This document shows positions 39,508-60,500 of a stretch of 64,000 nucleotides of DNA, piece by piece. The notes under the pieces were generated by a model, which saw nothing but the letters and a program-made list of their open reading frames with translations, ran no database searches and had not been told where the DNA came from. Position numbers and translations under genes: made by a program. Every line of letters begins with the position of its first letter. Positions within the stretch are counted from its first letter, which is position 1. The DNA comes from Candidatus Marinacidobacterales bacterium (GTDB lineage Bacteria; Acidobacteriota; Vicinamibacteria; Marinacidobacterales; DATDRI01): contig OZ245365.1 in NCBI GenBank assembly GCA_965226495.1, positions 5,529,783-5,593,782 of the forward strand, read 5' to 3'.

Positions 39508-39541
39508 GCATGCCACCTATTCCTCTCCTAATTCCTCCGAG

Positions 39542-41239: not shown

Positions 41240-41323
41240 TATAGCGGTAGTCGGCCGGAGTGGCCGGATCCTGACACCCGTCCTATACTACCGCCACCAT
41301 TCACCGGGAACCCGGGTTTCATC

Positions 41324-42441: not shown

Positions 42442-42461
42442 ACGGACGAGGAGAACTCGGC

Positions 42462-43694: not shown

Positions 43695-43713
43695 ATCCCA
43701 ACCTTGTGAAGAT

Positions 43714-44229
43714 TTGAAGCTCGATAAAGCTCTCTTCGCACTCGTGCTAGCCCTGTGCGTCTTGGTCGGCGCACTGATGCTCGTTCCCGACCGGTCGGAC
43801 TACCACGGTATCACCCACCCGGACTTCCCGAGCTTGTTGCAAGGCGGCCCCGGCGCGGAGCGGCACGCGCGCGTCATGGGGCTCGGATGGGCCTTCGGTA
43901 CTCTTCAACTCGTATTCTTCGCCTGCCTCATCGCCTTCGGAGCTAAAAAGCAGCATGGCTTACGCGGTCTCGGGAAGCCGCTTCTCTTCGGCCTAGCCTT
44001 GAATACGGCCGTTTGGACACTCTGTGTTCTTACATACCGTGTTTATTTGACGGAGCCGACTCACATGCTCCTGCTGGGACTTCCGCTATCGACCGCGATC
44101 ATGGCCTACGGAATGTGGCTCGCCCCGACCATCTACACTTTTCTCTTCGTGTTCGGCTTCAAGCGTTGGTACCTCTCGGACCAAGATCTCGCAGCTTACG
44201 ATCGTCTTATGGAAAGCAAACAGCAATGA
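43714..44229 (+). CDS. Small membrane protein, DUF4212-like putative symporter small subunit (recalled from memory)
   Basis: 171 aa, four TM helices. Its stop overlaps the start of the adjacent Na+/solute symporter (ATGA), the usual arrangement for this small-subunit family. Confidence 0.5.
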   Translation: MKLDKALFALVLALCVLVGALMLVPDRSDYHGITHPDFPSLLQGGPGAERHARVMGLGWAFGTLQLVFFACLIAFGAKKQHGLRGLGKPLLFGLALNTAVWTLCVLTYRVYLTEPTHMLLLGLPLSTAIMAYGMWLAPTIYTFLFVFGFKRWYLSDQDLAAYDRLMESKQQ

Positions 44230-45719: not shown

Positions 45720-46994
45720 TGCCGACGAAACTCCTCAACTTCCTTTTGTTGATTCTCCTCGCGGTGCCGTCCTTCCCACAGGGGTTGCCTAGCGCAAAGC
45801 CCGAGGATGTCGGCATGTCGACGGCGCGACTGGAGCGCATCCGCCCGGTCATGCAGGCCTATGTCGATGAGGGAAAGGTGCCCGGCATGATCACCGCCGT
45901 GGCACGGCGGGGGAAGCTGGTCCATGTCGATCAGCTGGGAATGATGGACCTCGAGCCAGGGAAGAAGATGAGATCCGACACCATCTTCCGCATCTACTCC
46001 ATGACCAAGCCGGTTACCGCCGTGGCGATGATGATCCTCTATGAGGAGGGGCGGCATCGCTTGAACGAACCGGTCTCGAAGTACCTCCCCGAATTGCAGA
46101 ACTTGACGGTCTAGCTGGGGGGGGCTGGGCAAGAATCTGCGCACGGAGCCGGCGAGGCCGATGACGATCAAGCACCTCCTCCTTCACACCTCAGGTTTGA
46201 TCTATGGAGCCGATGAGCCCGGAGTCCCCCAACTCTACCGGGACGCCGAGATCTGGGAAGCGGTCAGCCTTGAGGACTTCGTCGACAAGCTTGCGGGGCT
46301 TCCGCTTCTCGCCCAACCGGGAACGGAGTGGAATTATGGCGTATCGACGGACGTTCTCGGTCGATTGGTAGAAGTCCTTTCCGGAGAACGTTTCGAAGAA
46401 TTCCTGGAAGAGCGCATTTTTCTGCCCCTCGGGATGGTGGACACGGCCTTCTACGTTCCGGACGAAAAGCTCGACCGCTTCGCAGCCAACTACCAAGCCA
46501 CACCAGAGGGTGGCTTGAAGCTCATCGACTCGCCCAAAAACAGCGAGTTCCGAAATCCGAATCCAGTGCCCTACGGCGGTCAAGGCCTGGTCTGCACCGT
46601 CGGCGACTTCGTACGTTTCGCCCAGATGCTCGCCAACGGTGGAGAGCTCGACGGGGTTCGGATCCTCGGACGCAAGACCGTAGACTTCATGATGCTCGAC
46701 CATTTGGGACCCGAGCTGGGGCCCGCGCCGCTCGGCGAGGCCGCGGGTTGGTACGGGATGAGCCCCGAAGGCTTGGGCTTCGGACTTGGCGGCTCCGTCG
46801 TGCGCAACGTCGCTCAGAACTCCTTGATCGGCTCGACCGGCGACTTTTCCTGGGGCGGGGTAGCGAGTACCTACTTCTGGATCGATCGGAGCGAAGCGCT
46901 CATCGCCGTGCAGTTCACCCAACTCATGCCCTCCGACAAGTATCCGATCCGTGCCGAGATGAAAATCCTCACCAATCAAGCCATCATCGACTGA
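45719..46994 (+). pseudogene. Beta-lactamase-family serine hydrolase interrupted by an in-frame TAG plus a frameshift at a G8 homopolymer (46117-46124)
   Basis: Part 1 (45719-46114) carries the signal peptide and SMTK (SxxK) motif and ends ...LPELQNLTV*. Part 2 continues in another frame: GGLGKNLRTEPARPMTIKHLLLHTSGL...WNYGVSTDVLG... Removing one G alone does not remove the TAG. The stop of the SSS gene overlaps the ATG (TGATG). Confidence 0.7.
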
Positions 46995-47012
46995 ACGCAA
47001 AAAGCGCAGAAT

Positions 47013-48152
47013 ATGACACAAGACGTTTTCGCTCCCCAACTGAGCATCGGACCTCGCGTCCGCAAGTCACCCTACTTCGACGCCACGTTGCGGTGGGGGG
47101 TCAAAGCCTTCACGATTTACAACCATATGTACATGCCGACCGTCTTTACCGATCCGGTGGACGAGTACTGGAAGCTCGTGAAGAACGTCACGTTATGGGA
47201 CGTGGCCTGCGAGCGACAGGTCGAGATCACCGGTCCCGACGCAGCCAGGTTCGTCCAGCTCTTGACACCGCGGAATCTCGCGAAATGCGCGGTAGGTCAG
47301 TGCAGGTACGTGATCTTCACGACAGAGGACGGCGGGATTCTGAACGACGCGGTCCTGCTACGCCTCGGCGAGAACCAGTTCTGGCTCTCCCCGGGGGACG
47401 GCGACGTGCTCCTATGGGCGCAAGGCGTCGCGGTGAACTCCGGGATGGACGTCACTATCGACGAGCCCGATGCGTCACCACTCCAGCTTCAAGGGCCGAA
47501 GGCGCCTCTGGTGGCCCAAGCCCTTTTCGGTGACCGGGCACTCGACCTCTCCTACTACCACTTACGGGAGACTGAGCTCGACGGGATTCCACTTGTCTTA
47601 TCTCGCACCGGCTGGAGCGGCGAGCTCGGCTACGAGCTCTTCTTGAGAGATCGCCGCCAGGGCGATGCCCTTTGGGAAAAAGTCATGACGGCAGGCAAAC
47701 CATACGGCATCGCCCCCATCGCGCCGAATCTCATTCGGAGCGTCGAGGGTGCCATCTTTTCTTACGTCTCCGACATCACGCGCGAAGACAATCCATTCAC
47801 CATCGGTTTCGATCGCATGGTCGATCTCGACCATGACTTCATCGGCCGCCAGGCGCTCACAAAGATCAAAGCAGATGGCGTCAAGCGCCGCTTGGTAGGT
47901 GTCGAGATCTCCGGCGATCCGTTACCCGGGAACGATCAATTCTGGTATGTAACGGTCGGCGGAAAGAGGGTCGGACGTGTGACTCGATGCGTTCACTCGC
48001 CTCGATTGAAGAAGAACATCGGCTTCGTCAACGTGCCGACCGAATATTCCGAAGCCGGTTCGAAGCTCACCATCGCCGTGCCTTCAGGCGACGCCGAGGC
48101 CACGGTGGTACCGACGCCGTTCGTCGCGTCTCAGAAGAAGATCCCACGGTAA
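47013..48152 (+). CDS. Aminomethyltransferase-family (GcvT-like) folate-binding protein
   Basis: GcvT fold pattern (…LWDVACERQVEITGPDAARFVQLLTPRNL..., GWSGELGYELF...). 379 aa. Confidence 0.72.
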   Translation: MTQDVFAPQLSIGPRVRKSPYFDATLRWGVKAFTIYNHMYMPTVFTDPVDEYWKLVKNVTLWDVACERQVEITGPDAARFVQLLTPRNLAKCAVGQCRYVIFTTEDGGILNDAVLLRLGENQFWLSPGDGDVLLWAQGVAVNSGMDVTIDEPDASPLQLQGPKAPLVAQALFGDRALDLSYYHLRETELDGIPLVLSRTGWSGELGYELFLRDRRQGDALWEKVMTAGKPYGIAPIAPNLIRSVEGAIFSYVSDITREDNPFTIGFDRMVDLDHDFIGRQALTKIKADGVKRRLVGVEISGDPLPGNDQFWYVTVGGKRVGRVTRCVHSPRLKKNIGFVNVPTEYSEAGSKLTIAVPSGDAEATVVPTPFVASQKKIPR

Positions 48153-48159
48153 CCCGCGC

Positions 48160-49776
48160 TCATTTACCGTCCGCGAACTGCTCTCTGAGCTTCGTTTTCA
48201 AGAATTTTCCTGTCGATGTACGGGGGATCGCTTCCACGAACTCGTAGGCATCGGGGATCCACCACTTGGCGAATTTGGGCGCGAGAAAAGCGCGGAGCTC
48301 TTCGGCCGTGGCCTTCGCTCCTTCTTTGAGAACCACAACGGCGAGAGGGCGTTCTTGCCATTTGGGATCGGGGATCGCGATGACCGCCGCCTCCTGAACC
48401 GCTTGGTGACCCATGAGCGCTCCCTCAAGATCCACGGAGCTGATCCACTCGCCCCCCGATTTGATAAGGTCCTTCGTGCGATCGGTGATCTTGACGTAGC
48501 CTTCGGGATCGATCGTCGCTACGTCTCCCGTACAGAACCACCCGTCTTCGGTCCATCGGTCTCGCTCGGACACCTTGAAGTAGCTTGACGCGACCCAGGG
48601 TCCGCGAACCTGAATTTCTCCCATCGTCTTTCCGTCCCACGGAACTTCACCGTCTTCGGAGACGGCGCGCAGATCCACCAGCGGAGAAGGTATACCTTGC
48701 TTCGCGCGGTAGGCGTATCGCTCGTCCTCTGAGAGATCCCTCATGCTGGCCTTTACCTTGCTCAACGTCCCCAGGGGTGTCGTCTCGGTCATGCCCCACG
48801 CCTGGATGACCTCGATACCGTGACGATCGAACGCTCGGATCAATGTTTCTGGGACGGCGGATCCTCCGACCAAGGCCCGCATTCCTGGAGAGAGGGTCCA
48901 ACGGTCCGGAGTCTTATCCAGCTCTTGCACCATCCCGAGCCAGATGGTGGGAACGCCCGCGGTGACCGTGACCTTCTCTTTTTCGTATAGATCCAGGAGA
49001 CTTGGTGGGTCCAAGTGCGGACCGGGGAACACCAGCTTACAACCGACGAGAGTCACGGTGAATGGAAGCCCCCAGCAATTGACGTGGAACATCGGCACCA
49101 CCGGCAAGACGACGTCCCGCTGGGAAAGTCCCATCATGTCTTCGAGTGCACAGGCAAAGGAATGCAGCACGAGAGCGCGATGGGAGTACACGACGCCCTT
49201 GGGACGGCCCGTGGTGCCGGAGGTGTAGCAGAGGCCGGCCGCATCGTTCTCCTCGATCTCCGGTTCCTCGAAATCTCCAGTGGCACGATCCAGTAGCTTT
49301 TCGTAGCTTTCACAACCTTCGGGGATCGCGTCCTCCGAATGAGAGACCACGAAGATACGCTTGAATTTAACGCGGTCGGCGAACTTCTCGAAGAGTGGCA
49401 GCAAGACATCATCGACGATCAGGAACCGATCTTCGGCGTGCTCGACGATGTAGACCAAGTCGTCGGGGTGAAGGCGGAGATTCAGCGTGTGGACGACCCC
49501 ACCGGCAGCCGGAATCCCAAAGTAGGCCTCCAGGTGTGCGTGATGATTCCACATGAACGTCGCCACGCGGTCGCCGCGATTGAGACCCGCTTTGAGCAAC
49601 CCCTCGCTCAGAGCTCGAGACCGGCGTTCGATGTCCGCATACGTGTGCCGCCGGAGCGACTTGTCGGGTTCCTGCGAAACGATCTCGACTCGAGCGAAGA
49701 GCTTCGCAGCCCGCCGGAGGAGGTGGGTCAACGTGAGAGGGTAGTTCATCATGTTCCCTTGCATGCATCCCTCCAT
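48160..49776 (-). CDS. AMP-dependent acyl-CoA synthetase (fatty-acid--CoA ligase family)
   Basis: LCYTSGTTGRPKGVVYSHR (AMP-binding motif I), and Gly-rich/DxxR/K motifs further on. Probable start MMNYPLTL (about 49752). Confidence 0.85.
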   Translation of the reverse strand: MEGCMQGNMMNYPLTLTHLLRRAAKLFARVEIVSQEPDKSLRRHTYADIERRSRALSEGLLKAGLNRGDRVATFMWNHHAHLEAYFGIPAAGGVVHTLNLRLHPDDLVYIVEHAEDRFLIVDDVLLPLFEKFADRVKFKRIFVVSHSEDAIPEGCESYEKLLDRATGDFEEPEIEENDAAGLCYTSGTTGRPKGVVYSHRALVLHSFACALEDMMGLSQRDVVLPVVPMFHVNCWGLPFTVTLVGCKLVFPGPHLDPPSLLDLYEKEKVTVTAGVPTIWLGMVQELDKTPDRWTLSPGMRALVGGSAVPETLIRAFDRHGIEVIQAWGMTETTPLGTLSKVKASMRDLSEDERYAYRAKQGIPSPLVDLRAVSEDGEVPWDGKTMGEIQVRGPWVASSYFKVSERDRWTEDGWFCTGDVATIDPEGYVKITDRTKDLIKSGGEWISSVDLEGALMGHQAVQEAAVIAIPDPKWQERPLAVVVLKEGAKATAEELRAFLAPKFAKWWIPDAYEFVEAIPRTSTGKFLKTKLREQFADGK

Positions 49777-49812
49777 CGGTGAATCAGTGCGCGCTCACTC
49801 TTCCATTCGTGG

Positions 49813-49930
49813 CGCGGGGCCCCACCCCCACGCCTCTCGCTTCGCTGGCGCTGCGCTCGGGCTGAGGGCTCCGCTCGGGCCGGGCTCGCTCCTTCATCAA
49901 CGCGGCGGGGCCCCACCCCGGCCGCCGTCG
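49813..49930. repeat. Two tandem divergent copies (49813-49851 and 49899-49940) of the GGCGAAGCGA...GTGGGGGTGGGGCCCCGCG motif, in reverse orientation
   Basis: + strand GCGCGGGGCCCCACCCCCACGCCTCTCGCTTCGCTGGCG and GCGGCGGGGCCCCACCCCGGCCGCCGTCGCTTCGCCGGCA. The reverse complement of copy 1 is nearly identical to 8507-8535. Lies between the MFS stop and the acyl-CoA synthetase start. Confidence 0.6.
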
Positions 49931-49975
49931 CTTCGCCGGCAAGCGGCTTCGCGACAGCTGACGGCTCCTCGCAGA

Positions 49976-50008
49976 GGGTGCAGTGAATCCGTAGGCACCC
50001 TCTGGTGA
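49976..50008. other. Perfect 10-bp inverted repeat CAGAGGGTGC-N13-GCACCCTCTG
   Basis: Read from the sequence. 47 nt downstream of the MFS stop on the minus strand. Not followed by a U-run in either orientation. Confidence 0.5.
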
Positions 50009-50054
50009 CTCAATGGTGCTTCTACTACTACTTTGACTTGCTGGCAAGTCGACA

Positions 50055-51336
50055 TCACCGGTCTTGAAACGTTTCGTCGGAGCGGATCCCGAGCCAGAGA
50101 AGAGCGGCGATCCAACTCACCACAGCGGCGCTTCCCAAGGCGAAAGACCAGCCGAACCAACTAACCAGCAAAGGGACCAAGGGTGTACAGATGACGCCAC
50201 CCAAGTTGGTCCACATGTTCATCACTCCGCTTGCCGAGCCCGCATGGCGCCCCGAGACGTCCACGATGGACGACCAGTAGGCGCCCTCGGTGAGCTCACC
50301 GAATCCGAAACACGACGAAAGCGCGAGGACCGCGTGCCCGGTATTGGCACCGATCACGAGTGTAATGCCGGATAGCGTCATCCCGATGAGGCCCACCCAC
50401 CTTCTACCCCAACGTCGTCCGATGCGAATCGACAAGCGGTCGGTAATGTGTCCCCCGACCGGCGCCGCGATCCCGCCCACGATGAAGGGCATGCTCGCGA
50501 AGAAACCGCTTTCCAGTATCGTGAACCCTCGCACGTCGATCAGATACAAGAAAACCAGAATACGAAATATAGAAGACGTAGCCGTAGCAGAAGTAGCTTA
50601 TCGAAAGGAGGAAAACGTTCTTGTTCCTGAACAATAGCCACGGATTCGCTGCGGTGGGCGTCGAAACGGTGGTTTCTTCTCCACCTTGGGAAATGATCGC
50701 TAGCTCTCCGCGCGTCACGGCGCGGTGATCCTCCGGTCGCTCGGTGGCGTACCAGCGGTACAACACGGCGATCAAGAAGGCGAAACCGGCGGCCACGTAG
50801 AACGCGTTACGCCACCCTACTGTCACCATCAACGACGAAATCACGGGCGGCGTAAAGGCGGAACCGATCGATAGCCCGCCGATCAAAAGAGCGAGCGGGA
50901 AAGCTCGCCCGTTCGAAGGAAACCAGTTTGCTACCGCCCGGGCCGCTACCGGATAAGTGGGTGCTTCCACGACGACCCCCAGGAGGAAGCGCAACACGAG
51001 CAAAGAAACTAGCGCGGCGAACCCGCCGGGAACGAGCAGACCGGGAACCAACCCGCTCAAGACGGTGAAGATTCCCCAGAAGAAGGCCGCTCCCCATAGA
51101 ACCCGCCACGCCCCGAAACGGTCCCCAATCCAACCGGCCGGAATCTGGCAGATGGTATAGCCGATCATGAAGCTGCTGAAGACCCAACCCATCTGCTGTT
51201 CAGACAGGTCGAGCTCGGGCATCATGAACGCCGAGGCAACGGAGATGTTCATCCGCTGCAGATAGCTGACGAAGCTAAACCCGACCAAGAGGGCCAGGAT
51301 CTTCCACCGAACTCTGGAAGCCCTGGAAGGGGACAT
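50055..51336 (-). pseudogene. MFS transporter with an apparent +1 frameshift around 50575 (or sequencing error)
   Basis: N-half ORF (51336-50404) has TM1-6 and ends ...YFCYGYVFYI then nonsense. C-half ORF (50549-50055) resumes ...IFRILVFLYLIDVRGFTILESGFFASMPF... in the +1 frame (TTG/ATA region). Together they make one 12-TM MFS. Confidence 0.65.
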
Positions 51337-51376
51337 TGTGGAGGATAGGCGGCGGGAAGACGGTCGATCCGTCTTG

Positions 51377-52000
51377 CTACGGACCGACCCATTCGACGTG
51401 TGCGTACTCGCCGCTCTTGCCGGACAGGTCCCAGTTCCGCCCCCAGTCGCGAAAGCGGCTCTTGGTCCCGGTGCACACGACGACGTCCGGAGACATCCAG
51501 TAGCTCGTGTTCTTTATCTCGGTGACGCCTAGGCCACCGGCTCCGACGATGGGCTCGATTAAGCCGTCGATCGTCTTCGGGATGGTCACTTGCCATCCTC
51601 TGCCCTTTTTCTCGAAGCTGATGGGCACTTGCTTGCTGCCGAGAAAGTTGGCGATCATGATCCGGAACCAACCGACCGGGCCACCAGCCTGACCGGAAAG
51701 GATGTCGGTCATGGCCTTGGCGGCGGCGGGACTCGCCTGGTCGTCGATGTAGAGAGCGAAGGTCCAGCCACCTTCGGCGAGAGGACCGGGCACCTCCATC
51801 AGCACCGCCGCCTTCAGGCCGTCCAGCTTCTCGTCACCCGCATGCCCCTTGTGGATGTTGAGCCCCCACCAAGTCTGACAAACACCGTGGCTGGGCTTCG
51901 CCTTACCGAGGGAAACAACGCAGGGACAAAAAACCTCGCAGTTGCAACTGAGTGCCAGCTCTCCTTTGATCTTCCAAGGTGCCACTTCTTCCTTCTTCAC
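51377..52000 (-). CDS. DUF1326-like protein (CNCxxxCPC N-terminal motif; recalled from memory)
   Basis: ELALSCNCEVFCPCVVSLGKAKPSHGVCQTW. 207 aa, soluble. 28 bp downstream of the DUF2182-like membrane-protein gene. Confidence 0.6.
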   Translation of the reverse strand: MKKEEVAPWKIKGELALSCNCEVFCPCVVSLGKAKPSHGVCQTWWGLNIHKGHAGDEKLDGLKAAVLMEVPGPLAEGGWTFALYIDDQASPAAAKAMTDILSGQAGGPVGWFRIMIANFLGSKQVPISFEKKGRGWQVTIPKTIDGLIEPIVGAGGLGVTEIKNTSYWMSPDVVVCTGTKSRFRDWGRNWDLSGKSGEYAHVEWVGP

Positions 52001-52028
52001 GTTCGTTCCTTTCGCCGTTACGTTGTCG

Positions 52029-52844
52029 CTAGTTCATCAGGCCCAACCTCAACAAGTACAGCCCCCAAACTACGAACAACACGCCCGCCCCGCGTCCGAT
52101 CTGGTGCCCCGATGGGGCCAGTTTCTCAACCAGAACCAAGCCAGCGATCGCCGCCAGCCATAGAAGGTTCATGACCCCGGCGACGAACATCAGAGCCATC
52201 AACGCCCAGCAGCAACCTACGCAGAACGCCCCATGCTCGAGCCCCATCACCAGTGCCCCCGACCTACCAGGCCGCCAAGACGTCATGAAGAAGGCGAGAG
52301 GAGACCGACAGTGAGTCAGACATGCGTTCTTCAGTCGACTCCATTGAAAGAGGCCGGCCACCACCAAGACGAGTCCGCCGAAGATCACATTGGTGCTCAC
52401 GCCCGCCGCCGAAACGAGTGCCGCATGGTGAAGGCCCCATTGAGCCACCGCGCCAAGCGCGCTGAAACCGGTCCACACGACGATGTAGCCGAGCAAGAAC
52501 GCCGCCGTGGGGGAGAAGGGTTCACGATCGGGATCTGTTTGTTGTTTCCGGTTGATCTTCGCAAAAGTCAAAATCATCTGAGAGGCCGAAGGAACCATCA
52601 TCGCGATCATCATGACCGTCCACATCACGAACAGAAACAGGAAGTCCCGGACGCTCCACGCCTCGATGTGCGGATGGGTGATGCTCGTGCCAACAAATGT
52701 ATGCGCGGGGTTTGTCGCCAGGTAGGCAGTGTAGGTCCAGGCGAGGAGCGACACACCGATGAGGCCACTCATCACGACCGCGCGGTCGCGACTCAATACC
52801 GACTCCAGGGCGGTAACTCCTTCATGCGTATGATGCGTCACCAT
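52029..52844 (-). CDS. DUF2182-like integral membrane protein (predicted metal-binding; recalled from memory)
   Basis: Six TM helices, His/Cys-containing loops (HAFCVGCCWALMALMFVAGVMN, THCRSP). Paired with the DUF1326-like gene. Confidence 0.6.
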   Translation of the reverse strand: MVTHHTHEGVTALESVLSRDRAVVMSGLIGVSLLAWTYTAYLATNPAHTFVGTSITHPHIEAWSVRDFLFLFVMWTVMMIAMMVPSASQMILTFAKINRKQQTDPDREPFSPTAAFLLGYIVVWTGFSALGAVAQWGLHHAALVSAAGVSTNVIFGGLVLVVAGLFQWSRLKNACLTHCRSPLAFFMTSWRPGRSGALVMGLEHGAFCVGCCWALMALMFVAGVMNLLWLAAIAGLVLVEKLAPSGHQIGRGAGVLFVVWGLYLLRLGLMN

Positions 52845-52900
52845 TTGCTTTTCGATGAGTACTCTTTCCCAGTTTGTGTGTCAACTTGCAGGCTAAGTGA

Positions 52901-54192
52901 CTAATCGCCGTCTTTCTCGAAACGGGACAGCGAAAAGAATGGGTCGGGGGTCCGCTTTTCTAGCACGAGCTCGGCAACCTGTTCGCCAACCGCGGGGCCG
53001 TGTTTAAACCCGTGTCCGGAGCCTCCACCAACCAGCCACACGTTCTCTAAACGTGGATGGCGATCGAGTATGAAGTGTGAGTCGGGACTGTTCTCGTACT
53101 GACACACGCGCGCCTCGAGAAGGGGAGCCCCCTTGAGGCCGGGGAATCGGAACTCGACATAGTCACGTGCCGCCGATAGTGCGGTCGGCGAGTAGGTTCT
53201 TTCACCGTCAGTAGGATCGAACGGCTCGCCTCGACCATCGTCTGCGATTTTGAATCCCCGCCACTCGCTTCCTGGAATGCCATAGAAGAGACGCTCGCCG
53301 TTATCGATCCATACCGGAAGGGTGTGGCCCGAGTAGCGAGAGTCTCCAGGCGGCGTGCCAAAGTAAAAGATTTCCTGTCGCGTCGGGCGGATGCGATCTC
53401 CTAGGACATCGGGGAAAAGCCTGCCGAGCCAAGGACCGCAGGCGAAAACGAACTGGTCGCCGGAAACGAGGGACCCATCCGGGAGCAGGACCCCTCCCAA
53501 CTTTCCGTTCTCATCGGGTCTCGGTTTAGCCGCACTCTGAAGGTACTGACCTCCTTCGGCGAGGAAGCCTTCGAGAACAGCGGCGCAAGCCCGACGCGCC
53601 AGCAAGTAGCCCGCGTCTTGTTCCTGGATCGCCCAACGGACGCCCTCGAAATGGATCTGGGGAAACCGTCGTCGCGCCTCTGCCACATCGAGCTCCTCGA
53701 ACCGGAGTCCGACGTCGCGCAATATGGGTAGAGATGCTTTTTCGTAGCCGTCGTTCTCCCCAACCATCCATAAGGCGCCGGTCGGTCGGTAAAGCGGACG
53801 GTTCCAGAGTTTCTCGTTCTCTTTCCAGAGCGCGAGCGAACGGGCCACCATCTCGGCGTAGATCCGATCCGGACCGTAGGTTCCCCGAATGACCCGCGAC
53901 TCGCCCCCCGAGCTTGCCCGGGAGTTCCCGGTCCCCAGGTGTCGAGGAGAGTCACCTTGGCACCGCTCCTCGAGAGATGAAGCGCAGTCCAACCCCCGAA
54001 GGCTCCGGCGCCTACCACAACCACTCGCGGTCCTTGGCGCGTCGCGACCTTAGCCGGCTTCCCCTGCGAGCCGAATCCCGGAATCATTGCCACTGCGGCA
54101 CTCGCCTTCAAAAGCGAGCGGCGTGAAACGCCGCCTTCCTTTCGGCTAGGACCACCCCCCTTTTTCGCCATCAGACCTCCTCGGTCCCGCAA
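52901..54192 (-). pseudogene. Sarcosine-oxidase-like FAD oxidoreductase (DAO family) with twin-arginine signal; 1-nt deletion frameshift near 53940 (or sequencing error)
   Basis: Upstream ORF has SRRSLLKASAAVAMIPGFG (a Tat motif) and RVVVVGAGAFGGWTALHLSRSGAKVTLLDTWGPG. Downstream ORF continues NSRASSGGESRVIRGTYGPDRIY... through a C-terminal HGFKHGP. The junction sits in the CCGGGAACTCCCGGG run. Confidence 0.65.
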
Positions 54193-54246
54193 AGCCTCTG
54201 CACGGTTGAACTTGTCGTCCAGCCCCCCGCCGCGAGGCCTAACGGT

Positions 54247-54267
54247 TTGACCATAATATGGTAAAAT
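54247..54267. promoter_or_regulatory. Palindrome ACCATA-a-TATGGT (54252-54264, overlapping a TTGACC hexamer at 54247-54252) with a second ATATGGT 17 bp downstream, immediately upstream of the Rieske oxygenase gene
   Basis: Read from the sequence. Sits in the divergent region between the FAD-oxidoreductase and Rieske genes. TAAAAT at 54262-54267. Confidence 0.4.
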
Positions 54268-54277
54268 CCATCACGAT

Positions 54278-55420
54278 ATGGTCAAGACCCGTGCTCCGGT
54301 TGTGGGCTCACTCGGCGCCAAGGGGACGCGCCGGCCATTCGAGCAAGCCTCTCCGCTTCCAGGCGATTTCTTCCATTCTTCAGAGGTCCTTTCCGCAGAG
54401 CTCGACCGAATCTTCGCAAGAACGTGGATCGTCGTCGGCCGCGAGGAAGACATTTCCGAGCCCGGGAGCTATTTCACTCGTGAGATCGGTAAGGAGTCCA
54501 TCGTATTGCTCCGTGGTACCGGCGGTGAACCCAGAGCGTTCTTCAACGTCTGCCGCCACCGAGGTGCCAAGCTCTTAGAGAGCTGTGACGGAGCCAAGCT
54601 CAAGAAGATCCAATGCCCTTATCATGCCTGGACCTACGATCTCGACGGGCGACTCGCCGCCGCTCCGCTCATGGAGTCGACGCCCGGCTTCTCGAGGGAG
54701 GATTATCCACTAGTTCCTGTAAGGGTCGAAACATGGGAAGGTTTCCTTTTCGTGAACTTGGATGACGATGTTGAGCCTCTCGAGCCGCAACTCGCAGGCT
54801 TCCCCAACGTCTCGCGCTTCCAGCTTCCCAACCTGCGCCGGGGCGGGCGCGTCGCCTACGATGTGGCCGCCAACTGGAAGCTCATCGGCGAGAACTACAA
54901 CGAGTGCTACCACTGCGCTCTCGTTCATCCTCAACTTCATCGCATCAGCCACTATCAAAGTGGCGGGAGAATAGAATCGGGGATGAATTTCACCGGAGGT
55001 CCCATGACCCTCAACGAGGGGTTTACGACCATGACCATGAGCGGGAGGAGCACACGCCCTCCCATTCCTGATCTCGTTCCAGAGGATCATCGGACCGTTC
55101 ACTATTTCCACCTCTACCCAGGCTTTCTGCTCAGCCTCCATCCTGACTACGTCTTGACGCACACCGTTTGGCCGGTCGACACATCCCACAGCCGCGTGAT
55201 TTGTGAATGGCTCTTTACGCAAGATGCCATGGCCCGGGAAGACTTCGACCCCAGCGATGCTATTGAGTTTTGGGACGTCACCAACCGGCAAGACTGGGAA
55301 CTTTGCGAGATCGCTCAGAAAGGAGTCCGATCTCGAGGCTACCGGCCCGGCCGCTATCAAGCGGGCGAGAGCTCGGTCCACGCCTTCGACAACTGGTGCC
55401 TCGATCAACTGGAGAGCTAA
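54278..55420 (+). CDS. Rieske [2Fe-2S] non-haem-iron oxygenase alpha subunit (GbcA/CntA/VanA-like demethylase/monooxygenase family)
   Basis: CRHRGAKLLESCDGAKLKKIQCPYHAWTY (CxH-X17-CxxH) and the catalytic NYNECYHCALVHPQLH (Fe ligands). 380 aa. Confidence 0.8.
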   Translation: MVKTRAPVVGSLGAKGTRRPFEQASPLPGDFFHSSEVLSAELDRIFARTWIVVGREEDISEPGSYFTREIGKESIVLLRGTGGEPRAFFNVCRHRGAKLLESCDGAKLKKIQCPYHAWTYDLDGRLAAAPLMESTPGFSREDYPLVPVRVETWEGFLFVNLDDDVEPLEPQLAGFPNVSRFQLPNLRRGGRVAYDVAANWKLIGENYNECYHCALVHPQLHRISHYQSGGRIESGMNFTGGPMTLNEGFTTMTMSGRSTRPPIPDLVPEDHRTVHYFHLYPGFLLSLHPDYVLTHTVWPVDTSHSRVICEWLFTQDAMAREDFDPSDAIEFWDVTNRQDWELCEIAQKGVRSRGYRPGRYQAGESSVHAFDNWCLDQLES

Positions 55421-55576
55421 CTAACCGACCGCTCTCGGTGCTGGCATCGAAGCTCCTACCTGTGGTACTCAACTCCGCCGGGGGCGATCGTTCAGAGGTC
55501 AGCCACGATCGTGCCCACGCGCTTAAATCGTAATCATCCAAACCCACTGTGCTGCTAGCCGAGGAGATCCAAACCC

Positions 55577-57253
55577 ATGCCCAAGTCTGCCATCCCTCCC
55601 GACATAGAGATCGCGCAATCGGCCAAGATCCGACCCATCGTGGACGTAGCCTCTGAGCTAGGACTGGCGCCCGAAGACATCGAACCTTACGGCCACTACA
55701 AGGCCAAGGTGCGTCTCGAGGTGTTGGATCGAGCCAAGAAGAAAGCTCGTTTGGTCTTGGTGACCGCTACCAGCCCCACTACAGCGGGGGAGGGGAAAAC
55801 CACCATGACCGTCGGGCTGGCTCAAGCGCTCAGGCGGCTGGGTCACAAGGCGGCGCCGTGCATCCGTGAGCCGAGTCTCGGTCCGCTCTTTGGTATGAAG
55901 GGCGGGGCGGCAGGAGGCGGTTACTCTCAAGTCATCCCGATGGAAGACATCAATCTGCATTTCACCGGTGACTTTCATGCCATTACTTCTGCGCACATGC
56001 TCCTTTCCGCCACCATCGACAACCATCTTCACCAAGGGAACACACTGGGACTGGACCCCCGCCGGATCCCATGGACTCGATGCTTGGACATGAACGACCG
56101 AGCCCTGAGACAGGTCGTGGTTGGGTTGGGCGGCCCGACCGGAGGTGTTCCACGGCAAGAAGAGTATGTCATCACCGCCGCGAGCGAGATCATGGCGATC
56201 CTTTGTTTGTCGACGGACCTTGCCGATCTAGAAAAGAGGCTCGGGAACATCCTCGTGGGCTACAACCAGGAGCGAAAGCCGGTCCGGGCGCGCGAGCTCG
56301 AGGTCCAAGGCGCGATGACGATCCTTCTCAAAGATGCCTTGAAGCCCAACCTGGTACAAACGCTCGAAGGAGGACCCGCCTTTATTCACGGCGGACCCTT
56401 CGGGAATATCGCGCATGGATGTAACTCTATCCTGGGAACTCGAATGGCCATGGCTTTGTCCGACATCGTCGTCACCGAGGCCGGTTTCGGAAGTGATCTG
56501 GGAGCCGAGAAGTTCTGCGATATCAAGTGTCGCGCGGCGGGTCTCACTCCCGACGCTGCGGTCATCGTGACTACGGTAAGAGCACTCAGGTACAACGGTG
56601 GTCAACCGAAGGGTGAGACCGGGGAGAATTCAAAAGCGCTCGAGGCTGGCTTCGCCAACTTGGATAAGCATATCGAAAACGTCGCTACGTTCGGCTTGCC
56701 TGCTATCGTCGCGGTGAATCGCTTCCCCACGGACACCGACGCCGAAATTGAACAAGTGATTACCCACTGCGAGAAGGTCGGCGCCGCCGCGGCAGATGCC
56801 GATATCTTCTCGAGAGGGGGAGAAGGGGGAGAAGCCTTGGCCGAGGCGGTGGTCGAGGTGCTGGAAACTAAGAAGTCCGAATTCCGGTTCGCCTACGAAG
56901 TCGACGAGCCGATCAAAGACAAGGTCCACGCGGTGGCCACCAAGATGTACGGTGCCGACGGTGTCGACTACACCGCCAAAGCGGAGAAAGCGATCGCCGC
57001 TTTAGAGCGAAACAGTCTTTCCAATCTTCCCGTCTGTATCGCCAAGACGCAGTATTCACTCAGCGACGAGCCGACCAGGCTCGGGCGCCCACGAGGTTTC
57101 CGGATCCAAGTGCAAGACGTGATCGCCTCCGCCGGAGCAGGATTCCTAGTCGTGTTGGCAGGGTCGGTGATGAGAATGCCGGGGCTTCCTCGCGTTCCGG
57201 CCGCTACTCAGATGCACATCGGCCCCGATGGAAAAACGGTGGGACTCTCGTAA
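55577..57253 (+). CDS. fhs: Formate--tetrahydrofolate ligase
   Basis: TPTTAGEGKTTMTVGLAQAL (the PxGEGKxT signature). 558 aa. Colinear with FTHFS. Confidence 0.95.
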   Translation: MPKSAIPPDIEIAQSAKIRPIVDVASELGLAPEDIEPYGHYKAKVRLEVLDRAKKKARLVLVTATSPTTAGEGKTTMTVGLAQALRRLGHKAAPCIREPSLGPLFGMKGGAAGGGYSQVIPMEDINLHFTGDFHAITSAHMLLSATIDNHLHQGNTLGLDPRRIPWTRCLDMNDRALRQVVVGLGGPTGGVPRQEEYVITAASEIMAILCLSTDLADLEKRLGNILVGYNQERKPVRARELEVQGAMTILLKDALKPNLVQTLEGGPAFIHGGPFGNIAHGCNSILGTRMAMALSDIVVTEAGFGSDLGAEKFCDIKCRAAGLTPDAAVIVTTVRALRYNGGQPKGETGENSKALEAGFANLDKHIENVATFGLPAIVAVNRFPTDTDAEIEQVITHCEKVGAAAADADIFSRGGEGGEALAEAVVEVLETKKSEFRFAYEVDEPIKDKVHAVATKMYGADGVDYTAKAEKAIAALERNSLSNLPVCIAKTQYSLSDEPTRLGRPRGFRIQVQDVIASAGAGFLVVLAGSVMRMPGLPRVPAATQMHIGPDGKTVGLS

Positions 57254-57279
57254 GAATGAAAGTAGCCTGGGGTCCCGTA

Positions 57280-58488
57280 TCACACACTAGGTCTCTTCAG
57301 AACGCTCCGCTTTCTTTCCGGATCGAAAAAGGGAAGCGGTGCGACTTTGGCAGCCACACGCTTGCGCGCGTACTCAATGGTCATCTCGAGTTCGACGCGC
57401 GTGCCCGGCTTAGCGTGCTCGGACCTGACGCTCGCAAGCGCGATGAACTTCTTCAGAAGCTTTGACCAACAGCTACTGGTTGCCCGACCGACCTGCCGAT
57501 CGTCGACGTAAACGGGAACCGGTTCCCGCGAAGCAACGTTCGACAGTTGCGGGAGCAAACCCACTTCCTCGTGGAGCTTCTCTAGCTCCTCCCACTTGAT
57601 TTCAAGCCCCACGAAGGCGTATGTCGAGCCCTTCTCCTTCTCTTTCTCGAGCGCCTCGCGACCGATGAAGTAGGGCTTGTTGAAATTCACCGCCCATCCC
57701 AGTCCTATTTCGTAAGGAGAAGACTTTTGCGACTCGATGAGAGCCTTCTCGGCGCTAATGAAGTCCACCTCGATGAGCGGATACCCGGCTTCGATGCGAG
57801 CCAGATCCAACGCAAGCATGCCGGCCGGAGTGATACCCCGACCCTTCCCGGCTTCCATCAAGAGATCCCATACCTGCTCGGCGTGATCCCGCGAAACCCA
57901 AACCTCGTACCCCAAATCGCCCGTGAAGCCGGTTCGGCTTACCCAGGTTGGAATGTTTCCCAAATTGGTGCGCGTGATCCAGAAGTACTTTAGATCGGAC
58001 AAATCGGAGCTCGAGAGCTCCATTAAGATCTCTCGCGAGCGCGGCCCTTGAAGAGCGAGCGCGCCCACTTGCTCGGAGAGATCTTCTATCTCCACTTCCA
58101 TTCCTTCGGCGTTCAGCTCGAACCACCGAAGCGTGGGGTCGGCAGCGGTGGCTCGAAAGGTGGTCTCGCCGAGACGCTGAAACGTGCCGTCTTGGATGAC
58201 TTTGCCTTCTCGATCACACCAAGGCACATAAAGGACCTGCCCTACTTTAGCCTTCGCCGCGTTCCTCGTGACGACACGGTTGACAAGCTTTGCCGCATCC
58301 CGGCCACGGATTTCGTATTTGAAGAGCGGAGAGACATCGATGAGGCCCGCGCCGTTCCGCATTGCGTGGTACTCCGGGTCATGAAAATCGTCGTAAGAGC
58401 TGGGAGCGAAGTACCCGGACCAATGACGCCAGTTCATACTGGTGCAGAGCACGGAAGTCCGAGAATGAAAGGGCGTTCCTACGGCCAT
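57280..58488 (-). CDS. Aminomethyltransferase-family (GcvT-like) protein
   Basis: GcvT-family fold (…YHAMRNGAGLIDVSPLFKYEIRGRDAAKLVNRVVT...GFTGDLGYEVWV...). 402 aa. Convergent with fhs. Confidence 0.78.
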   Translation of the reverse strand: MAVGTPFHSRTSVLCTSMNWRHWSGYFAPSSYDDFHDPEYHAMRNGAGLIDVSPLFKYEIRGRDAAKLVNRVVTRNAAKAKVGQVLYVPWCDREGKVIQDGTFQRLGETTFRATAADPTLRWFELNAEGMEVEIEDLSEQVGALALQGPRSREILMELSSSDLSDLKYFWITRTNLGNIPTWVSRTGFTGDLGYEVWVSRDHAEQVWDLLMEAGKGRGITPAGMLALDLARIEAGYPLIEVDFISAEKALIESQKSSPYEIGLGWAVNFNKPYFIGREALEKEKEKGSTYAFVGLEIKWEELEKLHEEVGLLPQLSNVASREPVPVYVDDRQVGRATSSCWSKLLKKFIALASVRSEHAKPGTRVELEMTIEYARKRVAAKVAPLPFFDPERKRSVLKRPSV

Positions 58489-58659
58489 GATGCCCTGGCT
58501 TGGAAGGTGGTCATAGAAAACTCCTCGTGGTCGGCAGTCTAGGTAGCCGCTTTTTTCGCGTCAACTCTACTACCTTATTACTATTGCCCATGCTATTCTC
58601 TTGGACCGCGTACCACAATGCAACCAGCGGTTCCATAATGTGGTTCGGATCGACCGGGT

Positions 58660-60246
58660 ATGGCAAAAAGCTACGACGTCATCGTCATCGGTGCGGGACA
58701 CAACGGCTTGGTGCACGCGGCCTATCTCGCAAAAGCCGGCAAGAAAGTTCTGGTGTTGGAACGTCGGCATCTCGTCGGCGGCGCCACCGTCACCGAGGAG
58801 ATCTACCCCGGTTTCAAGTACTCGGTTTGCTCCTACGTCGTGAGCCTTCTCCGACCGGAAATCATCGAAGACCTGGACCTTGCTAGCCACGGACTTCAGC
58901 TTCTTTCTCTCGACGGCACCTTCACTCCTCTTCCTAACGGCGACTACCTCGCCCGTTGGGGTGATCATGATAAGACGCGCCAAGAGCTGATCCGTCACTC
59001 CCGAAAGGACGCCGAGGCTTACGACCAGTTCGGAACGTTGATGTACCACCTTTCGCGGGCAGTTCGGTCCATGCTTTCCACGGTGCCTCCCGATCCCACC
59101 TCTTTCAAACCGTCCGATCTCGCCGGACTTGCACGAATCGGACATCAATTTCACGGCCTGGGAGAGGAGCGTCTCTACGATCTCACCAAGCTCATGACGA
59201 TGAGCTCCGTCGATTTCCTCGACGAATGGTTCGAGTACGAGCCGTTGAAGGCGACTATGGCTGCGAGCGGTATCATCGGTACGTTTCTCGGTCCCCGCTC
59301 GCCGGGAACGGCCTACGTCCTCCTCCATCACTACATGGGGGAGATCGACGGTGTCTTTCGTTCTTGGGGATTTCCGCGGGGGGGCATGGGTTCGGTCGCC
59401 GAGTCCATCGCTTCGTCGGCGAGAAGCCTCGGCGCTGAAGTTCGCACCGAAGCTCCCATCGCTCGTCTCCTCGTCAAGAATGGCAAGGCAGAAGGCGTGG
59501 TGCTCGAAAGCGGTGAGGAGATCCGTGCGCGAGCCGTCGCCTCGAGCCTGGATCCCAAGCGGACCTTCTTGAAACTGATCGAACCGAGCGATCTTGACTC
59601 CGATTTCGCGGAATCCGTACGTCGCTTCAAGATTCGTGGCTCTTCTGGAAAAGTGAACCTGGCGCTCGACGAGCTTCCCAACTTCACCTGTTTGCCTGGC
59701 GACGGCCCGCATCTCCGCGGATCGATCTCCATCAGTCCGAGCATCGACTACTTAGAGGAAGCCTACGACGACGCCAAGTACGGAGATTTTTCGAGAAAAC
59801 CGTACATGGACATCCTCATTCCCTCTGTAATCGATCCATCGATGGCCCCACCGGGAAAGCATGTGATGTCGATCTTCGTGCAATACGCCCCCTACCATTT
59901 GAAGGAAGGTACTTGGGAGGAAAAACGCGAAGCGTTCGGTGACGCCGTCGTGAATACGCTCAGTGAGTACGCGCCTAATCTAAAGAACTCCATTCTTCAT
60001 CGACAAGTGCTCACGCCTTGGGATCTCGAGCAGAAGATCGGGCTCACCGAAGGGAATATCTTTCATGGCGAGTTGACTATGGATCAACTCTTTTTCCTCC
60101 GACCCGTCCCCGGTTGGGCGAAGTATCGCACCCCTATTCGCAACTTCTATCTCTGCGGATCGGGAGCTCACCCAGGTGGGGGCGTGATGGGCTCACCGGG
60201 TAAGCTCGCCGCCCAAGAATTGCTAAAGGATTGGGAAAGCCTGTAG
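58660..60246 (+). CDS. FAD-dependent oxidoreductase, phytoene-desaturase (CrtI) family, paralog 1
   Basis: MAKSYDVIVIGAGHNGLVHAAYLAKAGKKVLVLERRHLVGGATVTEE (Rossmann GxGxxG) and the CrtI-family C-terminus ...GSGAHPGGGVMGSPG. Confidence 0.8.
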   Translation: MAKSYDVIVIGAGHNGLVHAAYLAKAGKKVLVLERRHLVGGATVTEEIYPGFKYSVCSYVVSLLRPEIIEDLDLASHGLQLLSLDGTFTPLPNGDYLARWGDHDKTRQELIRHSRKDAEAYDQFGTLMYHLSRAVRSMLSTVPPDPTSFKPSDLAGLARIGHQFHGLGEERLYDLTKLMTMSSVDFLDEWFEYEPLKATMAASGIIGTFLGPRSPGTAYVLLHHYMGEIDGVFRSWGFPRGGMGSVAESIASSARSLGAEVRTEAPIARLLVKNGKAEGVVLESGEEIRARAVASSLDPKRTFLKLIEPSDLDSDFAESVRRFKIRGSSGKVNLALDELPNFTCLPGDGPHLRGSISISPSIDYLEEAYDDAKYGDFSRKPYMDILIPSVIDPSMAPPGKHVMSIFVQYAPYHLKEGTWEEKREAFGDAVVNTLSEYAPNLKNSILHRQVLTPWDLEQKIGLTEGNIFHGELTMDQLFFLRPVPGWAKYRTPIRNFYLCGSGAHPGGGVMGSPGKLAAQELLKDWESL

Positions 60247-60447
60247 CAACTATGTGTGTTGATCGCCCCAGGGTCCCAGTGAACTACCGTCCCCGCCGGA
60301 GGGCAACGTGGCCAAGACGGCCCGGCAGGGCCGCCGGCCGGGAGGAATTGACTCATGAATTACACGGTCAAGGGAACCGGCCGGGTTTTTCGCCCGAGCG
60401 AAGCCTTGAAACGATGTCGTAGTCGCGAAGTCGACGGAGCATCAAGG

Positions 60448-60470
60448 CTTGGGGGTGGGGCCCCACTCGC
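60448..60470. repeat. Copy 4 of the GTGGGGGTGGGGCCCC motif (cttGGGGGTGGGGCCCCactcgc), preceded by gcgaagtcgacgg
   Basis: Shares the palindromic core GTGGGGCCCCAC and the upstream GCGAAG..CGACGG flank with the other three copies. Confidence 0.55.
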
Positions 60471-60500
60471 ATTAATCAAAGATTGGGAAGGCCTGTAGCC

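Follow-up and report, generated by a model that had tools for sequence, protein, structure and literature searches.

A Rieske oxygenase, a free-standing folate-binding protein and two CrtI-like flavoproteins form a conserved gene set beside a DmdA-like unit and a Tat-signal flavoprotein in an acidobacterial genome

When genes for a Rieske oxygenase, a flavoprotein oxidase and several folate enzymes lie side by side in a bacterial genome, do they serve one pathway or do they belong to separate units? We address this question for positions 47013-58488 of a 64,000-nucleotide stretch of DNA from Candidatus Marinacidobacterales bacterium (assembly GCA_965226495.1, contig OZ245365.1, positions 5,529,783 to 5,593,782); the whole stretch is called the window here, and window coordinates count from its first base. 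A sequence-only reading had joined five gene types of this interval into a single N-demethylation pathway: a Rieske alpha subunit, a flavoprotein with a twin-arginine translocation (Tat) signal, formate-tetrahydrofolate ligase (Fhs), and two GcvT-like proteins (here GcvT1 and GcvT2). All five are present where that reading placed them, as judged by Pfam and NCBIfam matches, and its general theme of methyl groups and folate stands. The single N-demethylation pathway and the roles given to individual parts do not. Four intervening genes had been omitted (a DmdB-like acyl-coenzyme A [acyl-CoA] ligase, an MFS transporter, a DUF1326 protein and a DUF2182/PpoB2 protein), and the real co-conserved partners of the Rieske gene, two CrtI-like flavoproteins at 58660-62108, fall beyond the end of the interval. 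Co-conservation, the reading's own test, also argues against one pathway, as not one of 80 related loci has a gene for Fhs, DUF1326 or DUF2182 alongside its Rieske gene.

We put at about even the chance that three units instead meet in this interval, in the genome of a Vicinamibacteria-like acidobacterium. Module B (54278-62108) would be the conserved core, coupling quaternary-amine oxidation to folate capture. Module A (41213-52844) would pass a methyl group from an onium compound to tetrahydrofolate (THF), and module C (52901-54171) would be an exported amine oxidase. The genes of module B are as follows.

54278-55420, plus strand: protein with Rieske and Ring_hydroxyl_A domains (Pfam), predicted group V alpha subunit with the clade-Va residue Tyr207, without a linked reductase
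55577-57253, plus strand: Fhs, formate-tetrahydrofolate ligase (NF010030, full length, 858.1 bits against a cut-off of 652)
57280-58488, minus strand: GcvT2, stand-alone folate-binding protein of the Tdm/DMGO/SoxA type, 402 amino acids
58660-60246, plus strand: CrtI/CrtO-like flavin adenine dinucleotide (FAD) oxidoreductase 1 (FADox1; Amino_oxidase superfamily), whose orthologues, up to 69% identical, adjoin Rieske homologues
60483-62108, plus strand: CrtI/CrtO-like FAD oxidoreductase 2 (FADox2), a paralogue 52% identical to FADox1

The evidence for a core comes from a search with the Rieske family alignment, in which each species was represented by a single genome; it gave 80 loci with homologues 36-49% identical. 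Neighbors were counted by tblastn with all window proteins and by independent clustering of flanking open reading frames (ORFs); where greedy calling of G+C-rich loci gave antisense shadow ORFs, the resulting clusters were disregarded. At least one member of the CrtI-like family lies beside the Rieske gene in about 30 of the 80 loci, and GcvT2 in 13 to 14. Together, GcvT2 and the two CrtI-like flavoproteins are the only set that travels with the Rieske gene across these loci. The four genes occur as a co-directional operon in the order GcvT2, FADox1, FADox2, Rieske in Gemmatimonadota (L017, L018, L029, L037) and in Bacteroidota (L052, Saprospiraceae; L058, Roseivirgaceae), and in a divergent layout like that of the window in Acidobacteriota (L004, L006, L008, L046). 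Two closer relatives with 68% Rieske identity (L085, L172) have the window-like layout and keep the core and nothing else of the 11-kb set. Fhs is present in the closest relatives (L083, L171), whereas L085, L172 and the 80 genome loci all lack it, a distribution that marks it as a lineage-specific insertion between the Rieske gene and GcvT2.

Other recurrent neighbors of the Rieske gene are APC amino acid permeases (10 loci), BetI-type TetR regulators (9 loci), class III aminotransferases (8 loci), aldehyde dehydrogenases (6 loci), oligopeptide-type and PotD-type ABC transporter components, and amidohydrolases; a cytoplasmic MSOX-like DAO adjoins it in 14 loci. This company indicates amine or amino acid catabolism, and the four-gene module probably serves quaternary amines. 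In the two 68% relatives, TonB-dependent receptor genes lie directly upstream of the Rieske gene (L085, 7752-9989; L172, 7101-9997). Rieske genes paired with CrtI-like genes are also found on two contigs binned as archaeal (L010 and L031, from Methanobacteriota and Thermoplasmata metagenome-assembled genomes [MAGs]), by either horizontal transfer or misbinning. A hydrolase gene of the DDAH_eukar/ADI type (dimethylarginine dimethylaminohydrolase family; weak NCBIfam scores) lies 21 kb upstream in the window (32268-33140, plus strand). Genes of this type occur directly upstream of the four-gene operon in the Saprospiraceae MAG (L052, 4319-5245) and near a homologue of the Tat-signal flavoprotein (L087, 8800-9774). 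Such neighbors are a possible sign that methylated arginine or dimethylamine is among the related substrates.

By sequence, the Rieske protein is a group V enzyme that stands outside the aromatic ring dioxygenases; a place among the latter was the result that the sequence-only reading had named as counting against it. Its best solved relative is carnitine monooxygenase CntA (6y8j; 186 bits in a single alignment over residues 26-359), followed by stachydrine demethylase Stc2 (3vca; 177 bits) and 3n0q (163 bits), both in two stretches, whereas aromatic ring-hydroxylating alpha subunits reach at most 112 bits and match the N-terminal half only. A beta-subunit gene was not seen among the window genes. 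In a 26-sequence alignment of the family (A1), the Rieske cluster ligands C92, H94, C113, and H116 and the 2-His-1-carboxylate iron ligands H212, H217, and D339 are invariant, and both sets align to those of CntA. The segment E209-C210-Y211-H212-C213 equals E205-C206-Y207-H208-C209 of CntA and the ECYHC of Stc2; the bridging glutamate and the Cys-x-x-Cys pair are a feature of group V quaternary-ammonium oxygenases (PMC7948474, PMC10952381).

Which reaction such an enzyme might catalyze is suggested by a single position. Group V is split by the residue two before the bridging glutamate: clade Va has Tyr or Phe, which makes a pi-cation contact, and includes CntA, the choline monooxygenases, and OxyBAC, whereas clade Vb has Asn and comprises the oxidative N-demethylases GbcA, BmoA, and Stc2 (PMC7948474). 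In HMMER alignments, the window protein reads N-Y-N-E and CntA N-Y-M-E, against N-N-R-E in Stc2 and 3n0q; Y207 aligns with Y203 of CntA, and the tyrosine is invariant in A1. The best NCBIfam match is the GbcA model (NF058607), yet its 223.8 bits, split over two stretches, are far from the cut-off of 670. Of the GbcA/CntA-type assignment in the earlier reading, the quaternary-ammonium part is thus supported and the GbcA subclade is not, and the step from glycine betaine to dimethylglycine is not favored. Because the protein belongs to group V and differs from GbcA in both the diagnostic residue and the model score, we consider an attack on the carbon beside the nitrogen, as by CntA or choline monooxygenase, at least as likely as N-demethylation. 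CntA and choline monooxygenase yield trimethylamine or an oxidized side chain. Given the clade-Va tyrosine, the Rieske step in this organism may likewise free one of these and not a methyl group.

The sequence-only reading had remarked on the missing Rieske reductase, and we agree: neither the called genes nor the major ORFs of the window include a ferredoxin- or FNR-type partner, no CntB-, GbcB-, or Stc3-type reductase was found among the window genes, and no reductase family recurs over 82 related loci. The absence is therefore a property of the family. In a neighbor-joining tree of 85 Rieske homologues, the module-associated proteins are scattered over several clades; the deep branches of this tree are unreliable, so we draw no conclusion on single versus multiple origins.

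GcvT2 would connect the core to folate. Its best NCBIfam match is the C-terminal half of trimethylamine N-oxide (TMAO) demethylase (287 bits); T-proteins and the folate domains of dimethylglycine oxidase (DMGO) and sarcosine oxidase rank after it. Against solved structures it scores 179 bits with the TMAO demethylase Tdm (9q5a), 112 bits with DMGO, and 86 bits with DmdA. The folate domains of Tdm, DMGO, and SoxA capture formaldehyde or an iminium as 5,10-methylene-THF. By analogy, we infer that the Rieske enzyme would attack the quaternary center, that the two CrtI-family flavoproteins would oxidize the resulting tertiary and secondary methylamines, and that GcvT2 would take up the formaldehyde or iminium so released as 5,10-methylene-THF; in the window lineage, Fhs would tie the folate one-carbon pool to formate and ATP. 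The earlier claim that both GcvT-like proteins accept formaldehyde is consistent with this placement for GcvT2; for GcvT1 it is not, since that protein is DmdA-like, which implies methyl transfer to 5-methyl-THF. The two proteins are 31% identical. A glycine cleavage role was rejected for both, as they score 139.9 and 162.3 bits on the gcvT model TIGR00528 (cut-off, 235.85) and the partners are missing: the window holds no GCV_H or GDC-P gene, as the sequence-only reading had observed for gcvH and gcvP.

The flavoproteins of the core are open to another interpretation, namely, that the Rieske and CrtI/CrtO-like proteins modify a carotenoid or other isoprenoid and that the nearby folate genes are coincidental. 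The best named matches of the pair are indeed the CrtO ketolase model NF045689 (351.9 and 327 bits) and, as sole full-length solved relative, CrtI (4dgk; 84-94 bits). These scores fall far short of the cut-offs, which are 1000 for CrtO and 238.1 for the crtI_fam model TIGR02734 (124.8 and 158.5 bits). The annotated recurrent neighbors are permeases, BetI-type TetR regulators, aminotransferases, and GcvT-like proteins, with no carotenoid gene among them, and the Rieske protein carries quaternary-amine signatures. We find the carotenoid interpretation highly improbable. In the quaternary-amine interpretation that we prefer, the amine-oxidizing role of the flavoproteins is drawn from gene context alone, because their own likeness is to carotenoid desaturases and ketolases.

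A bolder version of the quaternary-amine reading would make the four genes a new self-contained system that strips methyl groups, or the trimethylamine moiety, from a quaternary ammonium compound, with CrtI-family enzymes in place of DAO-type demethylases and flavoprotein electrons perhaps feeding the Rieske center without an NAD(P)H reductase. Such electron transfer is conceivable because a reductase is never linked to the Rieske gene; still, we consider the system as a whole unlikely. Literature searches on Rieske clusters with aminomethyltransferase, GcvT, phytoene, or betaine genes returned nothing relevant, and the gene set is undescribed there.

Directly beside the Rieske gene and divergent from it stands the flavoprotein that forms module C.

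52901-54171, minus strand: Tat-signal DAO flavoprotein of the MSOX/MTOX family; 423 amino acids after repair of a one-base frameshift at 53927-53929

The twin-arginine signal noted in the sequence-only reading is present. The N terminus carries VSRRSLLKASAAVAMIPGFG, a motif of the type S/T-R-R-x-F-L-K followed by a hydrophobic stretch, and in 86 of the 120 best homologues pattern matching places a motif of the SRRxLL type ahead of the FAD-binding GxGxxG. Most of the remaining 34 are N-terminally truncated calls, so the signal is evidently a property of the family. The best NCBIfam match of the repaired protein is MTOX (NF008425), at 222.6 bits below the cut-off of 257, and we place it at the level of the DAO/MSOX superfamily only. 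Its C-terminal V-C-Q-Y-E-N-S-P-D may match what we take to be the region of the cysteine that binds FAD covalently in MSOX.

The Tat-flavoprotein accompanies the Rieske gene only in the closest relatives (81-85% identity), where, as in the window, it is divergent from that gene and upstream of DUF2182-DUF1326. In the 80 Rieske loci, it yields weak cross-matches (26-33%) to the different, cytoplasmic MSOX-like DAO. Of three homologues that are 62-65% identical, two follow a TonB-dependent receptor gene, and none has DUF genes nearby. TonB-dependent receptor genes, one with SusD, were seen across L085, L172, L086 (3329-5956), and L087 (1511-5802), in the latter two upstream of Tat-flavoprotein homologues. 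Such neighbors suggest outer membrane uptake of substrates. In our best reading, the protein is an oxidase that resides in the periplasm, contains a cofactor, and acts on an imported amino compound with an N-alkyl or N-methyl group; it would have taken up its flavin before leaving the cytoplasm by the Tat route. Only in the window lineage is it linked to the other modules. An operon of oxidase, DUF2182, and DUF1326 was considered as a conserved unit and dropped, except in the closest relatives, because the DUF genes are not conserved beside distant Tat-flavoprotein homologues. Elsewhere in the window lie a second, cytoplasmic DAO-family flavoprotein gene beside a rhomboid gene (6563-7783, plus strand) and two tandem amidohydrolase genes followed by a peptide deformylase gene (28436-31002, plus strand).

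What, then, is GcvT1, if not a partner of GcvT2? The genes around it, which constitute module A, point in a different direction.

41213-42109, plus strand: IclR-family regulator that opens the plus-strand operon (Pfam HTH_IclR and IclR_C; 91% identical in L171)
42106-42441, plus strand: MTHFR-like remnant, residues 71-146 of 265 (weak Pfam MTHFR match)
42462-43694, plus strand: enoyl-CoA reductase of the crotonyl-CoA carboxylase/reductase (Ccr) type (549.6 bits on TIGR01751, cut-off 378.55), with conserved synteny in L083 and L171
43714-44229, plus strand: small ORF, no family match
44226-45719, plus strand: sodium:solute symporter (SSF) transporter (Pfam SSF), 497 amino acids
45719-46994, plus strand: serine hydrolase/esterase of beta-lactamase fold, in two ORFs (Pfam Beta-lactamase on both halves)
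47013-48152, plus strand: GcvT1, of a sister family of DmdA, putative onium:THF methyltransferase (from NCBIfam, PDB, and neighbors)
48160-49776, minus strand: DmdB-like acyl-CoA ligase, convergent with GcvT1 (passes the PRK06187 subfamily model)
50055-51336, minus strand: MFS transporter, in two ORFs (Pfam MFS_1); absent from L083, a 31-amino-acid remnant in L171
51377-52000, minus strand: DUF1326 protein, DmdF-like (PF07040, 153 bits)
52029-52844, minus strand: DUF2182/PpoB2 membrane metal-binding protein, DmdE-like (PF09948, 225 bits)

The best family match of GcvT1 is the DmdA model NF009133 (359.7 bits; cut-off, 410), and it aligns with Pelagibacter ubique DmdA (3tfh) at 256 bits and 36% identity over 357 positions, against 147 bits for the best true T-protein. 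It closes a plus-strand series that runs from the IclR regulator through the MTHFR-like remnant, the Ccr-type reductase, the small ORF, the SSF transporter, and the serine hydrolase. The remnant is 76% identical over 42142-42369 to an intact 265-amino-acid gene in L171 and is homologous to MTHFR-like genes adjacent to GcvT1 homologues elsewhere, a partner that fits GcvT1 as a former of 5-methyl-THF because such a demethylase needs MTHFR. The Ccr-type reductase may hold the place that the acryloyl-CoA reductase AcuI has in roseobacterial dmdA operons. The best NCBIfam match of the hydrolase is methyl acetate hydrolase AcmB (122 bits, under the cut-off). Among 107 acyl-CoA ligase models, the convergent ligase scores best on that for 3-(methylthio)propionyl-CoA ligase, DmdB (NF005426; 665.8 bits, cut-off 822); its gene is syntenic in L083 and truncated in L171. 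We propose that GcvT1 moves a methyl group from an onium compound, possibly dimethylsulfoniopropionate (DMSP) or a relative, to THF and so forms 5-methyl-THF.

Proteins 60-70% identical to GcvT1 number in the thousands in soil and sediment metagenomes, all annotated generically. A metagenome scan gave 80 GcvT1 loci (homologues 59-69% identical), of which the flanks were clustered and annotated with Pfam; as these loci stem from few sediment data sets and not from independent lineages, the counts are to be read with that in mind. The commonest neighbors are one or two pyridoxal phosphate (PLP) enzymes of Cys/Met metabolism (31 loci). They are followed by an acyl-CoA dehydrogenase of about 590 amino acids with an Acyl-CoA_dh_C domain (23 loci), an alpha/beta hydrolase (23 loci), a FadB-like hydroxyacyl-CoA dehydrogenase/enoyl-CoA hydratase (22 loci), homoserine O-succinyltransferase MetA (12 loci), a short-chain dehydrogenase/reductase (SDR; 10 loci), a carboxylesterase (9 loci), and a BCCT transporter (8 loci). 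Among the 60 loci whose flanks reach 2 kb or more, 10 have an MTHFR-like gene beside the GcvT1 homologue. The CoA-dependent genes may parallel DmdC and DmdD/AcuH, and the linked methionine genes could take methanethiol or methyl-THF as input; both analogies lean on the known DMSP demethylation pathway as summarized in PMC5395565. In the window itself, the IclR gene is preceded at a distance of 1.7 kb by a gene for a PLP enzyme of the cystathionine gamma-synthase family (38326-39516, minus strand; 656 bits on the NCBIfam model, cut-off 600), which belongs to the same Pfam family as that commonest sediment neighbor. A literature search on dmdA in Acidobacteria returned one unrelated paper only.

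The DUF pair (51377-52844) lies 3.2 kb from the DmdA-like gene. DUF2182 and DUF1326 proteins have been named DmdE and DmdF, which are encoded in an operon with dmdA-acuI in roseobacters; neither dmdE nor dmdF mutants grow on DMSP, purified DmdF is a peroxidase, and dmdEF-like genes outside Rhodobacterales are described as not being near DMSP or acrylate genes (PMC12992908, 2026). On an estuarine contig (L089), a GcvT1 homologue (69% identical), DUF1326 (70%), and DUF2182 (56%) are directly adjacent. As judged from these gene orders, at least two nonalphaproteobacterial lineages appear to associate a DmdA-like gene with DmdE/DmdF-like genes.

With all parts described, the stepwise betaine demethylation of the sequence-only reading can be weighed. 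It holds that a GbcA-type Rieske enzyme and a Tat-exported sarcosine-type oxidase remove methyl groups in turn (for instance, from glycine betaine through dimethylglycine and sarcosine to glycine), that both GcvT-like proteins capture the formaldehyde, and that Fhs provides the exit to formate. Every component lies within 11.5 kb, two relatives (81-85% identity) share the gene order of the block, GbcA does give the best NCBIfam match of the Rieske protein, and the 14 loci with a cytoplasmic MSOX-like DAO beside the Rieske gene show that a related oxidase can keep it company. We nevertheless consider this model quite unlikely. Besides the clade-Va tyrosine and the low GbcA score, it must contend with a flavoprotein that is predicted to be periplasmic while the Rieske and GcvT-like proteins lack signal peptides, with the loss of co-conservation of the Tat-flavoprotein, Fhs, and GcvT1 with the Rieske gene beyond the closest relatives, and with the DmdA-like nature of GcvT1 and its MTHFR and sulfur metabolism context.

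Are the three modules truly independent, and are their assignments secure? Here, a number of observations weigh against our division, and the modules may be linked. The space between the Rieske gene and Fhs in L171 is taken by a second DmdA-like paralogue (11230-12378; 58% identical to GcvT1; 387.2 bits on the DmdA model, cut-off 410), and in a Chloroflexia MAG (L079) a GcvT1-type gene immediately precedes the Rieske gene. The IclR genes that open module A in the window and module B in L018 are related. L171, moreover, is without the 5' part of the hydrolase gene, GcvT1, and the 3' part of the ligase gene, and its FADox1 and FADox2 are fragments (16131-16772), while in the window it is the MTHFR gene that is truncated. 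For module A, the scores of GcvT1 and the ligase stay below the DmdA and DmdB cut-offs, GcvT1 has a GcvT-like S-G-E-x-G-Y-E where P. ubique DmdA has S-K-Q-G-G-Y-E, the window genes include no DmdC or DmdD homologue, and the sediment loci lack independence. For module B, no reductase for the Rieske protein was found among the window genes, and the CrtI-like proteins are nearer in sequence to carotenoid desaturases and ketolases than to any characterized amine oxidase.

Some of these observations invite the view that modules A, B, and C serve one substrate family, with the DmdA-like and Rieske enzymes as alternative or sequential means of methyl removal from the same onium compounds. The DmdA-like genes adjoining Rieske genes in L171 and L079, the shared regulator family, and the synteny of the island in three genomes all accord with it. 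A GcvT1-type neighbor of more than 35% identity was found in just L079 of the 80 Rieske loci, however, a Rieske match occurs in 4 of the 80 GcvT1 loci and is merely 30-38% identical there, and the 68% relatives keep module B alone. We regard a shared substrate family as unlikely, though not negligibly so. The IclR gene of L018 (4742-5527; Gemmatimonadaceae MAG) is 47% identical to that of the window and heads the four-gene Rieske operon.

The opposite view is that the genes are juxtaposed without shared function in a rearrangement-prone and partly decaying region. The region is in flux: the island is being remodeled among close relatives. L083 (81% Rieske identity) has kept all genes but that for the MFS transporter, whereas L171 (85%) has an intact MTHFR-like gene and the truncations or losses of FADox1, FADox2, GcvT1, and the ligase described above; transposase genes adjoin the module in L084 and L085. 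Yet the four genes are found as an operon in more than one phylum, the folate and methyl-group coherence is unlikely to arise by chance, and several frameshifts coincide with homopolymers and, in an assembly of long reads, probably reflect errors. Pure juxtaposition therefore seems to us very unlikely, and a junction of three functional units remains our preferred reading of the interval.

The frameshifts deserve a closer look, since they affect the flavoprotein itself. Its gene is in two frames that break at a GGG run (53927-53929), and one added G gives a 423-amino-acid protein colinear with intact orthologues of 431 (L083) and 423 (L171) amino acids. The frame break of the beta-lactamase-fold gene is beside a G8 run, and the MFS gene is likewise in two frames. 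Most likely these are long-read homopolymer indel errors, given the homopolymer positions and Flye-style contig names. Further split genes are seen in the window (arginase and peptidase S9 fragments around 35.8-36.1 kb and 62.1-63.9 kb), and L083 has genes split that differ from those split in the window. The window is identical or near-identical to the ENA metagenome contigs ERZ25069189 contig_31 and ERZ25071126 contig_1 (2-7 mismatches and at most 1 gap over 19.7 kb). Among named homologues of the Rieske protein, the closest comes from a Vicinamibacteria MAG, and loci related to the Rieske gene are mostly from soil MAGs of Acidobacteriota, Gemmatimonadota, and similar phyla. The G+C content is even across the region (0.57-0.61), and as there is no anomaly, we see no sign of recent transfer. 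A promoter and terminator scan of 46.9-62.3 kb gave counts equal to the shuffled expectation and is therefore uninformative on operon boundaries.

Choline, betaines, carnitine, methylated amino acids, and sulfonium compounds are major currencies of carbon, nitrogen, and sulfur, and quaternary or methylated amines and sulfonium compounds are precursors of trimethylamine, methanethiol, and dimethylsulfide. The four-gene module is found in abundant, poorly cultured soil phyla (Acidobacteriota, Gemmatimonadota, and Bacteroidota), and modules A and B are both widespread and unannotated. If the quaternary-amine pathway is real, it would add to methylamine cycling a new set made of CrtI-family flavoproteins, free-standing folate capture, and a Rieske enzyme without a linked reductase, and the routine annotation of the CrtI-like flavoproteins as "phytoene dehydrogenase" would be corrected.

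Compared with known systems, the core resembles CntAB (YeaW/YeaX), choline monooxygenase, and OxyBAC in that its oxygenase has an alpha subunit and no beta subunit; CntA is the best solved relative and shares N-Y-x-E-C-Y-H-C. It differs from CntAB in its distance, in having no CntB-type reductase adjacent in the window or in related loci, and in the partners of the Rieske gene, which are a GcvT-like protein and CrtI-like flavoproteins. To our knowledge, neither of these belongs to cnt clusters. Glycine betaine catabolism in Pseudomonas and Chromohalobacter (GbcAB/BmoAB, DgcAB or DMGO, and SoxBDAG) and Stc2 offer a parallel in logic, with a Rieske attack followed by flavin-dependent demethylations and folate capture. 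The window differs in the tyrosine, in CrtI-family flavoproteins where those systems have DAO-GcvT fusions or heterotetrameric Sox, in the stand-alone folate protein, and in the absence of GbcB. The folate domains of Tdm, DMGO or the corresponding dehydrogenase, and SoxA are the best matches of GcvT2 and are fused to a catalytic domain, whereas GcvT2 is a separate protein. The Tat-flavoprotein shares the DAO fold with MSOX and MTOX/SolA and is set apart by a conserved Tat signal and, in more distant members, a position after TonB-dependent receptor genes. Finally, module A recalls the roseobacter DMSP regulon (dmdA-acuI, dmdEF; DmdB/C/D). The window has DmdA-like and DmdB-like proteins, an MDR-family enoyl-CoA reductase, and the DUF2182 and DUF1326 pair, and the neighbors of the GcvT1 family resemble DmdC and enoyl-CoA hydratase, along with methionine genes that use methanethiol or methyl-THF. 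It departs from that regulon in that the reductase is of the Ccr type and not AcuI, and in that the host is an acidobacterium from a soil-type metagenome. The DMSP demethylation pathway has been described as restricted to Alphaproteobacteria (2017 review, PMC5395565); the loci considered here suggest that DMSP-type demethylation chemistry and its association with DmdEF extend to sediment and soil lineages.

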